A DNA stretch of 54,334 nt from a virus. Lineage: Duplodnaviria; Heunggongvirae; Uroviricota; Caudoviricetes. Below are positions 9,001 through 15,000 of the stretch, piece after piece. Every line of letters starts with the position of its first letter. Position 1 is the first letter of the stretch. The DNA is taken from the IMG/VR virus record IMGVR_UViG_2541047874_000003. The stretch is one strand, 5' to 3'. The position numbers are program-made.

Positions 9001-12000
9001 TAAAGCGTGGGATTCTTATTCAGAGCGGGCGAAATATCGGCATTAATAATGTGGTCAGTGAATGGTCAACATTACCCGAATCAGGTAAGAAAAATAAAGT
9101 TTACCTGAAAGAGGTAAATTTACCTGAATCAGGTAAGAAAAGTTTACCCAAATCAGGTAAAGGCGTTTACCCGAATCAGGTAAACACAAAAGACAAACTA
9201 ACAAAAGACAATATAAAACCTTTTTCGTCCGAGAATTCTGGCGAATCCTCTGACCAGCCAGAAAACGACCTTCCTGTGGTGAAACCGGATGCTGCAATTC
9301 AGAGTGGCAGCAAGTGGGGGACAGCAGAAGACCTGACCGCCGCAGAGTGGATGTTTGACATGGTGAAGACCATCGCGCCATCAGCCAGAAAACCGAATTT
9401 TGCAGGGTGGGCTAACGATATCCGCCTGATGCGTGAACGTGACGGACGTAACCACCGCGACATGTGCGTGCTGTTCCGCTGGGCATGCCAGGACAACTTC
9501 TGGTCCGGTAACGTGCTGAGTCCGGCCAAACTCCGCGACAAGTGGACCCAGCTCGAAATCAACCGAAACAAGCAACAGGCTGGCGTGACAGCCGGCAAAC
9601 CAAAACTCGACCTGACGAACACTGACTGGATTTACGGGGTGGATTTATGAAAAACATCGCCGCACAGATGGTTAACTTTGACCGTGAGCAGATGCGCCGG
9701 ATCGCCAACAATATGCCGGAACAGTACGACGAAAAGCCGCAGGTACAGCAGGTAGCGCAGATCATCAACGGTGTGTTCAGCCAGTTACTGGCAACTTTCC
9801 CGGCGAGCCTGGCTAACCGTGACCAGAATGAACTGAACGAAATCCGCCGCCAGTGGGTTCTGGCTTTCCGGGAAAACGGGATCACCACAATGGAACAGGT
9901 TAACGCTGGAATGCGCGTAGCCCGTCGGCAGAATAGACCATTTCTGCCATCACCCGGGCAGTTTGTTGCATGGTGCCGGGAAGAAGCATCCGTTACCGCC
10001 GGGCTGCCAAACGTCAGCGAGCTGGTTGATATGGTTTACGAGTATTGCCGGAAGCGTGGTCTGTATCCGGATGCAGAGTCTTATCCGTGGAAATCAAACG
10101 CGCACTACTGGCTGGTTACCAACCTGTATCAGAACATGCGGGCCAATGCGTTGACTGACGCGGAATTACGGCGCAAGGCTGCCGATGAACTGTCCTGTAT
10201 GACCGCGCGAATTAACCGTGGTGAGGCGATACCTGAACCAGTAAAACAACTTCCTGTCATGGGCGGTAGACCTCTAAATCGTGCACAGGCTCTGGCGAAG
10301 ATCGCAGAAATCAAAGCTAAGTTCGGACTGAAAGGAGCAAGTGTATGACGGGCAAAGAGGCAATTATTCATTACCTGGGGATGTATAAGAGCTTCTGTGC
10401 GCCGGACGTTGCTGCGGTAACAGGCGCAACAGTAACCAGCATAAATCAGGCTGCGGCTAAAATGGCGCGGGCAGGAATCTTAGTCATTGATGGTAAGGTC
10501 TGGCGAACGGTGTATTACCGGTTCGCTACCAGGGAAGAACGGGAAGGGAAGGTGGGCACGAACCTGATTTTTAAGGAGTGTCGCCAGAGTGCCGCGATGA
10601 AGCGGGTGTTGGCGGTATATGGGAGGACTACAGCATAAGCATAACTTATGGATTATATGGAAAACTGGTAATTATGCTCTTTTCTTATGAAAATAAAGAG
10701 AAGTTTTCGCTGGCGTTTTATTTCTTCTGTTTTTTCTTGCGGGTTATTCTGATTTGTTTTGATTTGATTTTTTCTGACAAAAGTAGGGAAAAAATATGTC
10801 GCAAGTACTTTCTGTCTTTACCTCCTAAATTACATTCTCTATCAAATGTTGCCATAGTTATGACCCCAGTTTTATATAGTGTTTCAGCAATTTTTCTGTA
10901 GTTTTTTTCTCGCAAAATTGAAGAGTTTTTCTTTGCTGTATTTTCAAGGCTATCTCCTTGTGGTTTAAGACTATTTGGGCCAAAAAACGTTGTGGATACT
11001 GCTGCACTTGTTGTCCGTTTTTTTTGGCCCATTTGGATAGTACTTGGGAGAGGCATGATTTTAATACGCATATAAATAACTCCTCTATCAATTGGATTTT
11101 GAGAAAATATTAACATTAATCATGATTAAGGAGTAATTTTAAATCTTCCAATAAAATTTGTTTAAACTCTTGTGTTCTATGATCGATATACAACGCAAGT
11201 TTGCTTGCATTATCTTCCAGGTCACGTATCTCTCTGTCACCTCGAATAAACCCAACTAAATTTAAACGTTTAGATAGTTCAGAACTTCCTTCTATGGCAT
11301 CTTGGAGTATTTGAATGATTTCTGAATTCATTGAGCGCCCGTTTCGTTTGGCTCGTTCAGCTATAGCTTCACGCATCCCATCAGGGAAACGGAGGTTAAA
11401 CTTATCGTAGTCTTTTACTTGTTTGTCAGCCATTGGACCCCCCAAAAAAATGAATGGTGCCATATTGCCACATCAATTCAATGGTGGCATTATGGCCTCA
11501 TGGTGTCATTGTGGCCTCATGAGGTTATGTCAATGGAAAAGAAAGAGGTAAAAATTACCCTTCGCTATCCGCAAAAAGTGAAGGATGAATTCAAGCGAAT
11601 TGCTCAGGAGGAAGGGATGTCTGAGAACGCAGCTATTGTTCAGGCGCTTGTATGGGCATTGAAATTTAGAACACGGATACATGCTCGCTAGAAACAGCGA
11701 AGCCCCACTGGCGGCAACCTTAGGGGCTTCTATCGAAAATAACCGCGAAGGAAATATCGACATGAGTATTGTAGCAACATCAGATCTGAACTTCCAAGGT
11801 GAAGCACTAGTGCCAGTGGCAAATATTGCCGGAATATGGCTAACTTCATCCAACCTAGCAAGAGCACTGAAGTATTCGAATAGTCGCGCAGTCACGATGA
11901 TTTACAACAAATATGCTGACGAATTTTCCAGTAGTATGACTAGAGTGCTTGAAGTCAGTACCTTAGAGAATGATGTCGAGGTACTTGATCTGAGTACCTC

Positions 12001-15000
12001 GAAAAGTACTCGAAACTTGAAGAAGAAAGTACGCGTTTTCTCTCTCCGCGGAGCCCATTTGATCGCCATGTTCGCCCGCACTCCTGTAGCCAAAGAGTTC
12101 CGCCGTTGGGTTCTGGATATTCTCGATCGAGAAGTTCAACAATCCCCAATCATAAAACAATTCACTGATAACGAACTTTGCACACTTGCTTGGTTGTGGC
12201 GAGCTGGGGATGCGATGTTAACCGCCTGCCAGAACGTTACTCCTCTTCTTCAGGTTGCGGAGCATCGTGAAGCTGGTCGCTTCACTTCTATCGAGCAAGA
12301 ATATCCCCAGATACTCAATAAGGCACAGGCAATCCTTGCCAGAGAAACGGCACATGTAAAATTCCGGCCGTGGCAGGATGATAAGTGGAGTCGAGTTTTG
12401 CCGCATTTACGTTCGGATCGATTACAGTAGATTCCAATTAACAATGAGAAACACATAGCCACCCCGTGGTATTGAAACCATATAATGTTGGATTTGAAAA
12501 CAGATCTTTTTCCATGTATTAATAACTACATCCCCGCGAGTGATTCAAAAAGGAGGGCCCAATTTTGTCCGAGTTTTTGTATTCCCCCGCATGCCGCTGC
12601 GGAGCACTACATCTGAGTGTCTGACTAGGGGATAAAATTAGACTGGATAGTGAGAAGAAAGTGGCGTGCTAGGCTGTGCCGAGTGCTACCAGTACACCCT
12701 GGGGGTGTGCAGCTTTCGCCGAGACTGTAGTGGGTATCGGTTAATGCACGAAAAACCGAGAGGTCAGACAACCAATTTGCCGTAGGATTGTTTCCGGTGC
12801 GATACCGGTGTACTAACTGAAAGCAATGCGAAAAAGCATAAACTCGGTCCTTCAGTCGCCCTACACACTATTTACTAAGAAGGGCTAAAGCATGGATACA
12901 ATTATCACATGGATGGGAGATCGTCTGTTGGGGTGGATAACAAACAAATCCGATCTGCGGCAGAGGGCAATCACTGGATTAACTCCTGCGATTTGTTCAA
13001 CAATTTTATATACTGAAAAATTAAAACGTGGTGAGCCTAATAACCCAAACGAAGAAGAAAAACTTTATAGGCTTTGGTATGAAGCGTCTTCCCAAGTCGT
13101 AGACTTTGATCGAGAGCTGGCTAAAAGATGTTTAGATAAATCAGAATATTGGCTTCATTCTGAATTATATAGCCCTGAGAAAGTTGAAGAGCTAAACATT
13201 TCTTTGGTTGGTATGAAGGCAACGCTTGAAGGAATAAAGCACAATTAAAACCTTTGATTTGCGATAATCAACTCGCCATAATCATGTCATCGGAGCCTGA
13301 ACAACTCCGGTGACTTCTGCGCTAAACGGGGACGTTTATGCGCACACACAATCCAAACTCTCTTCTCCCTCCACAGATGCAGAAATGCACCTGCGATATA
13401 TTGTATCCAGCGTTTCACCTCTACGGAGGTGAAGCGTGAACCTACCACAAGATGGCATCAAACTGCATCGCGGTAACTTCATCGCTATCGGCCAGCAGAT
13501 CCAGCCTTATCTGGAGAACGGAAAATGCTTTCGCATGGTGCTTAAACCGTGGCGTGAGAAACGCAGTCTTTCCCAGAATGCACTCAGCCACATGTGGTAC
13601 AGCGAAATCAGTGAATACCTCATCAGCAGGGGTAAAACGTTCGCTACTGCAGCATGGGTAAAAGATGCTCTCAAACACACATACCTCGGTTATGAAAGCA
13701 AAGAACTGGTTGATGTCGTAACCGGTGAAATCACTACTATCCAGTCGTTACGCCATACCTCCGATCTTGATGCCGGAGAGATGTATGTCTTCCTCTGTAA
13801 GGTTGAAGCCTGGGCGATGAATATTGGCTGCCACCTGACTATTCCGCAGAGCTGCGAGTTCCAGCAGCTCCGCGACAAGCAGGAGGCGTAATGGCTACAC
13901 CGCTTATTCGTGTCATGAGCGGACACATCTACAGAGTACCAAATCGTCGTAAGCGTAAGCCTGAGCTGAAACCATCCGAAATACCAACACTGCTCGGATA
14001 TACCGCCAGCCTGGTTGATAAAAAATGGTTGCGACTGGCAGCAAGGAGGAACCATGGCTGATTTGAGAAAAGCAGCGCGTGGTCGGGAATGCCAGGTAAG
14101 AATCCCTGGCGTATGTAATGGCAATCCTGAAACGTCTGTACTGGCACATATCCGGCTGGCTGGATTGTGCGGTACCGGTATCAAACCGCCAGACCTGATT
14201 GCCACCATTGCATGTTCTGCCTGTCACGACGAAATCGACCGCCGCACACATTTTGTCGATGCTGAGTATGCAAAAGAATGCGCGCTGGAAGGTATGGCGA
14301 GAACACAGGTTATCTGGCTGAAAGAGGGGGTTATTAAGGCGTGAATACTTACAGCATCACATTACCCTGGCCTCCGAGCAATAATCGCTATTACCGCCAT
14401 AATCGCGGGCGCACGCACATCAGCGCAGAAGGGCAGGCATACCGCGATAACGTCACCCGAATCATTAAAAACGCAATGCTGGATATCGGCCTGGCTATGC
14501 CAGTGAAAATCCGTATTGAGTGCCACATGCCGGATCGCCGTCGCCGTGACCTGGATAATCTGCAAAAAGCCGCTTTTGACGCACTCACCAAAGCAGGTTT
14601 CTGGCTGGATGATGCTCAGGTCGTTGATTACCGCGTTGTGAAGATGCCTGTTACCAAAGGTGGGAGGCTGGAACTGACCATCACCGAAATGGGGAATGAA
14701 TGATGTTTGAGTTTTATATGGCAGAACTTCTTCGCCACCGCTGGGGGCGTCTGCGCTTATATCGTTTCCCCGGTTCTGTTTTGACCGATTACCGAATACT
14801 GAAGAATTACGCCAAAACCCTGACAGGAGCAGGAGTATGAAGTCAGAGATAACAATCAACTAATACTGTTTTGTTGATTTTTGCTTGTAATTGGCGTTCT
14901 GGTCTGATTTTTGTGGAGTAAGTTGATGCGTGATATTCAGATGGTTCTTGAGCGTTGGGGAGCGTGGGCGGCTAATAATCATGAAGATGTGACCTGGTCG

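Follow-up and report, generated by a model that had tools for sequence, protein, structure and literature searches.

A probable P22 immI-type antirepressor cassette with a predicted sar-like antisense RNA in the ren–ninB slot of a lambda-like Escherichia coli prophage

The DNA considered here, a window of 54,334 nucleotides from a virus of the Caudoviricetes (IMG/VR record IMGVR_UViG_2541047874_000003), belongs to a lambda-like Escherichia coli prophage and carries, between its genes ren and ninB, three small genes arranged around a divergent control region. On the minus strand, a mnt-like gene (11116-11433) encodes a 105-residue ribbon-helix-helix (RHH) protein; on the plus strand, an arc-like gene (11533-11691) encoding a 52-residue RHH protein is followed by ant (11762-12430), which encodes a 222-residue protein of an antirepressor family. 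The mnt-like gene and the arc-like–ant pair are transcribed divergently from a common control region of 99 bp (11434-11532), and in the spacer between arc and ant lies a predicted sar-like antisense RNA gene of about 70 nucleotides (~11688-11761, minus strand). A check of the open reading frames (ORFs) in the window confirmed all three genes where a first-pass annotation had placed them in proposing that 11116-12430 is an immunity module like immI of phage P22. That proposal is borne out: gene content and order are those of immI, and homology to P22 holds for four parts, namely Mnt, Arc, the C-terminal domain of Ant and sar, the last of which was missing from the three-gene parts list of the first pass. 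From the sequence, we conclude that 11116-12430 is most probably a P22 immI-type antirepressor cassette (mnt / Pmnt–Pant operators / arc – sar – ant), sitting as an accessory module in the ren–ninB slot.

The Mnt-like protein matches the Pfam Arc family (PF03869) over residues 7-51 (E 5e-20, 71.5 bits), and its RHH domain is 47% identical to that of P22 Mnt over 49 residues. In a sequence search of the PDB, its top solved-structure match is the P22 Mnt repressor itself (1MNT, E 1.7e-8), and RefSeq labels the gene, at identical coordinates, as an 'Arc family DNA-binding protein'. P22 Mnt has a helical tetramerisation domain at its C-terminus, but beyond residue 54 there is no sequence similarity to P22 Mnt, the C-terminal 50 residues not being alignable; a single-sequence AlphaFold model places helices at residues 35-63 and 68-102, with low confidence (mean predicted local distance difference test score, pLDDT, 50). 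The C-termini of Mnt are very diverse among the relatives of the cassette as well. We propose that in the lysogen this protein keeps the ant promoter silent as its maintenance repressor.

The control region contains a 17-bp repeat, ATGGTGNCATNNTGSCM, in three copies (11454-11470, 11481-11497 and 11500-11516). These are the sole three matches in the 54 kb, where 0.07 would be expected, and three matches were reached in none of 100 shuffles; the repeat-rich stretch noted by the first pass between the two RHH genes is thus real, and it is non-random. The best sigma-70 match of the region, with a scan score of 9/12 plus a TG extension, is a Pant-like promoter composed of a −35 hexamer TTGCCA (11465-11470), a 17-nt spacer and a TG-extended −10 hexamer CATTAT (11488-11493). 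The first repeat lies over the −35 hexamer, the second over the −10 hexamer and the third over the start site, a placement in which the repeats could act as operators of the putative ant promoter. The control region is conserved in phage Stx2a_WGPS8 and in the relative L079, which have the same Mnt RHH domain. In a further relative, L047, an altered repeat motif goes with a changed residue in the Mnt beta-strand (N to M). This co-change, seen in one comparison only, fits the view that the repeats are a Mnt-type operator.

The arc-like gene is the first of the ant operon and would encode an autoregulatory repressor that shuts the operon off. Its product matches Pfam Arc (PF03869; E 1.5e-4, 22.0 bits against a cut-off of 20.4, with the ORF taken as 11527-11691) and PHROG 582, 'Arc-like repressor' (E 1.1e-9), is 36% identical to P22 Arc over 45 residues, and is nearly equal to it in length (52 against 53 residues). 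The divergent pair of RHH genes described by the first pass therefore stands on both sides, but the start it gave for the plus-strand gene, 11527, is less likely than 11533. We favor 11533 because a Shine-Dalgarno (SD) motif, GAGG, lies at 11521-11524, 8 nt upstream of that ATG, because RefSeq also uses it, and because in the relative L012 the ATG at 11527 has become ATA while the ATG at 11533 and its SD are kept.

The spacer between arc and ant provides the fourth part of the likeness to P22. The Rfam sar model (RF00262), which describes the P22 antisense RNA that stops translation of ant, matches 11696-11760 on the minus strand over its whole length (model positions 1-68; 34 bits, E 2.4e-5 to 2.9e-4), and the predicted RNA is complementary to the arc–ant spacer including the SD of ant. 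A Psar-like promoter (11768-11797, minus strand) lies inside ant codons 2-12; it consists of TTGGAA, an 18-nt spacer and a TG-extended TACAAT, and would place the 5' end of the RNA at about 11761. When the P22 sequence is aligned here, its annotated Psar (P22 15097-15125), sar and ant start fall in register with the promoter, the RNA and the ATG of ant, and the distance from promoter to ant ATG is the same as in P22. The minimum-free-energy fold of the RNA comprises two hairpins (z −2.8). Hairpin 1 presents in its loop region the anti-SD sequence UUUCCUUC, the complement of the ant SD, and hairpin 2 is rich in G+C and followed by a U-rich run, as in a terminator.

Relatives of this RNA were gathered from IMG/VR with the Ant of the window and the Ant of Shiga toxin (Stx) phages as queries, and its structure is conserved among them. 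All 18 of 18 diverse relatives, folded singly, give the same two hairpins, and the hairpins are kept, with compensatory changes, across 29 distinct relatives. A covariance model of our own, built from five of the relatives, detects the RNA exactly once in each of 31 loci, in every case on the antisense strand and directly upstream of the ant ATG, and finds none in loci without an Arc gene. In the covariance-model alignment, 94.8% of cells are paired, against 35-60% when the partners are slid; compensatory changes occur in 6 of the 14 pairs, with covariation in both stems, and the covariation score of 0.387 compares with 0.142 in shuffles and at most 0.07 when slid, and was reached by none of 500 shuffles, all of these counts leaning towards structure because the alignment was fitted to our own model and the sequences are related. 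Independently, MAFFT followed by RNAalifold, applied to 18 sar regions, also retrieved hairpin 2, in which one position shows five pair types; hairpin 1 was misaligned in that run and was resolved by the per-sequence folds and the covariance-model alignment. The compensatory stem changes in the relatives indicate purifying selection on the cassette family. By homology, the arc–ant spacer holds a predicted counterpart of P22 sar with its promoter, an element specific to immI. Among the records examined other than that of P22 itself (RefSeq E. coli genomes, PhiR5_1 and Stx2a_WGPS8), none annotates a sar-like RNA.

Ant combines a Bro-N domain (PF02498; E 7.6e-9, 36.5 bits against a cut-off of 25.6) with a P22_AR_C domain (PF10548; E 1.8e-16, 60.4 bits). 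It matches PHROG 245, 'anti-repressor Ant', at E 2e-61, and a second PHROG of the same annotation at E 7e-32. Pfam returned no KilA-N, AntA or Phage_pRha match in the protein, so that among the families brought up by the first-pass annotation, Arc-type RHH and Bro-N were found whereas KilA-N and AntA were not. The Bro-N-type antirepressor gene that it placed downstream of the RHH genes is present as regards that domain; the resemblance to P22 does not extend to the N-terminus, as P22 Ant has P22_AR_N there.

The start codon of ant matters here, as RefSeq (WP_024191105.1) gives the protein 249 residues from an ATG at 11681, overlapping the arc stop codon and the whole sar-like gene, and phage records do likewise. 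We consider that ant probably starts at 11762 and that the RefSeq start is 27 codons too early. The in-register alignment with P22 sar, Psar and ant ATG places the start at 11762; the SD ahead of this ATG, AAGGAAAT, is kept in every relative examined; and the 27-codon extension is closed by stops, or open with no in-frame start, in P22, in the relative L021 and in 24 of 30 distinct relatives with a P22_AR_N-type Ant. From these stops and absent starts, the extension is probably an annotation artefact. On the other side, it is open and has its start codon, the ATG at 11681 overlapping the arc stop, in 15 of 17 distinct close relatives, as well as in the Stx-phage cassette, and this in-frame start is kept among them all despite five different Arc C-terminal peptides. 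It is conceivable, though doubtful, that the ATG at 11681 is real and that Ant is made in two forms like Ant1 and Ant2 of P1, a long one coupled to arc translation and a short one from 11762. In that event, ribosomes on the long form would cross the sar target and sar would block the short form only, making the antisense RNA selective in its effect instead of all-or-none.

Several observations weigh against assigning the segment to immI. For Pmnt there are three or four weak minus-strand candidates overlapping the repeat stretch, none of them decisive, and the three repeats, alike among themselves, have no sequence resemblance to Oarc or Omnt of P22. The sar-like RNA scores below the gathering threshold of RF00262 (34 against 43 bits) and is a diverged relative outside that curated threshold, and the covariation figures lean as described above. 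At the protein level, the N-terminal domain of Ant is Bro-N, as opposed to the P22_AR_N of P22 Ant and Stx2a_WGPS8 Ant; the C-terminal domain alone aligns with P22 Ant, and weakly (21% over 97 residues, E 6e-4); and a PDB sequence search with Ant gave no match at E up to 1. Since its Ant begins with Bro-N in place of P22_AR_N, we describe the cassette as a domain-swapped relative, P22-like in its regulatory half.

The observations on Ant feed the main live alternative, in which the cassette is immI-like but its Bro-N/P22AR_C protein is no antirepressor of cI, being instead a DNA-binding effector or one directed at host or phage (a Roi- or Rha-like growth modulator, or a protein acting in exclusion or anti-defence) under the same tight control. 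Bro-N is generally seen as a module for DNA binding, found joined to many different C-terminal domains. Its presence in place of P22_AR_N and the confinement of the likeness with P22 Ant to the C-terminal domain would both suit such an effector, as would the name 'Rha protein' given to the homologue in the PhiR5_1 and PhiR26_1 records, and the fact that the ren–ninB slot also carries defence cargo, for example PD-lambda-1. However, Ant has neither a Phage_pRha, KilA-N or AntA domain nor a convincing PADLOC match (E 0.006), and its strongest family matches are the two PHROGs annotated as anti-repressor Ant. Moreover, the same effector core stands under both classical control circuits, the P22 type here and the P1-type C4 RNA in PhiR26_1, which an antirepressor role fits best. 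We therefore judge the effector reading rather unlikely and take Ant, by analogy, as a putative antirepressor that would inactivate cI-type repressors; P22 Ant acts on repressors of the helix-turn-helix (HTH) plus S24 cI class (PMC2629481), and the resident repressor of the window is of that class.

A different view of the RHH genes was suggested by the gene next to mnt. ORF117 (10718-11071, minus strand) encodes 117 residues and has no assigned function; it is A+T-rich (33% G+C), its product is basic, and it lies on the mnt-like strand, 44 nt downstream of that gene, as a toxin gene might behind its antitoxin. The RHH genes would then belong to a toxin-antitoxin or partition-type module, with an RHH antitoxin and ORF117 as toxin, and there would be no immunity circuit. 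The Mnt-like protein does match FitA-like RHH proteins (E 8.6e-9) and, weakly, HicB in Pfam, and some of the PHROG matches carry the label 'partition protein ATPase'. Since P22 Mnt itself bears the 'partition' label in its RefSeq record, we regard such labels as annotation noise. ORF117 has no match in Pfam, PHROG, NCBIfam or PADLOC, and none of the neighbours matches a toxin family in these four collections. Its homologues, of 117-118 residues and 51-62% identity, occur in Hafnia and Enterobacter with no RHH gene adjacent: in Hafnia prophages they occur by themselves in the nin region and invariably run against early transcription, and the Enterobacter locus likewise lacks an RHH neighbour, its nin-region context being less clear. 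Other relatives of the cassette, for their part, have different genes or none downstream of mnt. We rejected the toxin-antitoxin reading on the ground that ORF117 homologues stand alone elsewhere, and give it hardly any credence; ORF117 is accessory and independent, the cassette having no obligate need of it, and may be a gene expressed in the lysogen. A reading as a defence system was likewise set aside: no cassette gene has a meaningful PADLOC match, and NCBIfam gave only sub-threshold RHH matches.

The immI-type cassette recurs widely. Phage PhiR5_1, deposited in GenBank under a record of its own (host E. coli C), has it at 98% identity between ren and ninB and shares the type of cI region. 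Five complete E. coli genomes contain it at 97% coverage or more, 908 of 5,426 complete E. coli genomes match parts of a 2.26-kb query enclosing it, and at least one further prophage, in E. coli SCU-113, has a related cassette in the ren–ninB slot among other neighbours. Most of 17 distinct IMG/VR relatives repeat the order mnt-like / arc-like – sar – ant with varied Arc types, and 10 of the 15 relative loci scanned showed a minus-strand ORF of the mnt-like kind. In the literature, we found no description of the cassette in a lambda-like nin region, only accounts of P22-like phages (epsilon34, L, Kapi1) and general surveys of Stx phages. The ren–ninB slot is also a hot spot for cargo, with PD-lambda-1 in PhiR26_1 (L091 683-2185) and a GNAT acetyltransferase in SCU-113 (L172 2745-3167) beside ant modules.

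This distribution also bears on whether the cassette could be an inert relic in a decaying prophage, no longer functional. An identical copy persists in strain 2017.02.03CC within a truncated prophage remnant at the DLP12 site from which cI, O and P are gone, some other copies lie in prophages riddled with insertion sequence (IS) elements, and the window itself has a Mutator-family transposase gene just after Q. Yet the ORFs, SD sequences, promoter hexamers and RNA hairpins of the cassette are all intact, the 98% identical copy in PhiR5_1 belongs to a phage with its own record, the late region of the window is 99% identical to sequenced E. coli siphoviruses, and relatives show compensatory changes in the RNA stems. 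Decay is therefore very improbable.

Its setting is that of a lambda-like phage with a tape-measure tail, not the late operon of a P22-like podovirus. The prophage order runs from a cI of the HTH plus S24 type (7001-7756, minus strand) through cro, a YdaT-domain gene in the cII position, O, P and ren to the cassette, and to the right of it through ninB, ninE, ybcO, rusA, ylcG and Q. The location between ren and the nin genes given by the first pass is confirmed on both flanks: ren (10345-10638, plus strand) matches PHROG 142, 'Ren-like exclusion protein', at E 4e-40 and is annotated as such in PhiR5_1 and RefSeq, and ninB (13436-13891, plus strand) matches Pfam NinB just above its cut-off (24.0 against 23.8 bits) and PHROG 72 at E 8.8e-51. 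The prophage of strain PSS-04, a close match to the window, is integrated beside a tRNA-Arg gene, like DLP12.

Three other features of the neighbourhood deserve mention. Just downstream of cI on its strand (5305-6881, minus), a gene for a HipA_2-like kinase (E 2e-76) and one for a DUF3037 protein correspond to PDC-M66A/B, a candidate defence pair of PADLOC (E 3e-14 and 4e-16). Directly downstream of Q (14911-15303) lies the Mutator-family (IS256-like) transposase gene (15432-16640, plus strand, E 3e-119). The PSS-04 prophage, which otherwise matches, has no annotated transposase there, and in the window the gene may cut Q off from the late operon. Finally, about 460 bp that contain no convincing ORF (12431-12891) separate ant from a gene of unknown function (12892-13248, PHROG 12412). 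This gap is common to phages IdasGreatGrand and Turner at 97-98% identity, and neither an Rfam match nor a terminator-like site was found in it.

By analogy with P22 immI as summarised in PMC2629481, we envision the following mode of action. In the lysogen, Mnt-like repressor made from the leftward gene would occupy the 17-bp repeats over the Pant-like promoter and keep arc and ant silent. On infection of a cell that lacks Mnt, Pant would fire and the Arc-like protein and Ant would be made together, after which Arc would bind the same control region and turn the operon off. The sar-like RNA, expressed from the promoter within the first ant codons, would pair with the ant ribosome-binding site and block translation of Ant from residual or read-through transcripts. 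Ant would bind cI-type repressors non-covalently and inactivate them, so that lytic growth is favored or resident lambdoid prophages are induced. With PR, O, P and ren all upstream of the cassette, early transcripts made at induction should read into arc and ant; following SOS cleavage of the S24-type cI, antiterminated early-right transcripts might in this way feed forward into Ant synthesis. Both this feed-forward role and a cross-induction of co-resident prophages are speculation on our part, drawn from analogy; for other antirepressors, cross-induction of co-resident prophages has been shown (PMC3121763).

The complete logic of P22 immI, sar included, thus travels as a cassette well beyond P22-like podoviruses, into the nin region of lambda-like E. 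coli prophages and, in Stx phages, to a place between tail genes. Where the prophage has an antirepressor at such a site, it could gain RecA-independent or feed-forward induction and could cross-induce co-resident lambdoid prophages, Stx phages among them. Of more immediate practical use, the sar-like RNA is unannotated in RefSeq and phage records, the ant start given there is probably 27 codons too early, and at its gathering threshold the sar model of Rfam does not pick up this branch. The current understanding of such switches is unchanged by these findings: the cassette is a domain-swapped, relocated relative of a well-known switch type and is common in E. coli prophages.

Compared with P22 immI itself (NC_002371 14519-15993), the order and orientation are the same, with mnt leftwards, arc and ant rightwards and an overlapping control region between them. 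Both RHH proteins are homologous to their P22 counterparts (47% identity for Mnt, 36% for Arc), sar and Psar hold the same position with respect to the ant ATG and can be aligned as nucleotide sequences, and the P22AR_C domain is common to both Ant proteins. The differences lie in the N-terminus of Ant (Bro-N here, P22_AR_N in P22), in the C-terminal domain of the Mnt-like protein, unrelated in sequence to that of P22 Mnt, in the operators, where three direct 17-bp repeats bear no resemblance to Oarc and Omnt, and in the company kept by mnt, which is sieA and orf59a in P22 and ORF117 in the window. The location differs as well. In P22-like podoviruses, the ant module is the late-operon 'ant moron' of Casjens, between the lysis and ejection genes and the tailspike gene (PMC2629481), whereas here the cassette occupies the early-right nin region of a long-tailed, lambda-like phage.

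Long-tailed Stx phages (Stx2a_WGPS8, 2851 and YYZ-2008) provide a second point of comparison. They carry a mnt–arc–ant cassette with about 85% nucleotide identity to that of the window over the Mnt RHH domain and the operator repeats, and with a sar-like RNA that scores 47.7 bits with our own model. Theirs lies between minor tail genes and a C40 peptidase tail gene (L003, Stx2a_WGPS8 3818-5413), its Arc is of a different type, and its Ant has P22_AR_N and P22_AR_C. The tail-gene location of a related mnt–arc–sar–ant set shows that the cassette moves as a unit.

Antirepressors under LexA control (GfoA and GfhA of the Gifsy phages, Tum of 186 and Ant of SPC32H; PMC3121763) also inactivate repressors non-covalently and can act in trans on other prophages. 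Their proteins are unrelated to Ant of the window, and control in the window would be by phage RHH repressors and an antisense RNA instead; LexA control is excluded here, the box CTGT-N8-ACAG having zero matches in the whole window.

The closest comparison for Ant itself comes from the P1/P7 immI type. In PhiR26_1 (L091 2754-3606), the same ren–ninB slot holds an Ant that is about 93% identical to that of the window over the C-terminal ~130 residues and diverged over the first ~85 residues, with a mosaic joint near position 12044 of the window. Control there is of another kind, by C4 antisense RNA, its a1b1 targets and isrK, with Rfam scores of 74.8 and 58.7 bits that exceed the gathering scores and with no Mnt, Arc or sar, and the same C4/isrK RNA genes lie upstream of a related Ant in the IMG/VR relative L057 (3754-4603); neither P1-type C4 nor isrK has a match in 10000-13600 of the window at E up to 5. 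The same antirepressor core thus stands under two classical control circuits, Mnt/Arc/sar in the window and C4 RNA in PhiR26_1.

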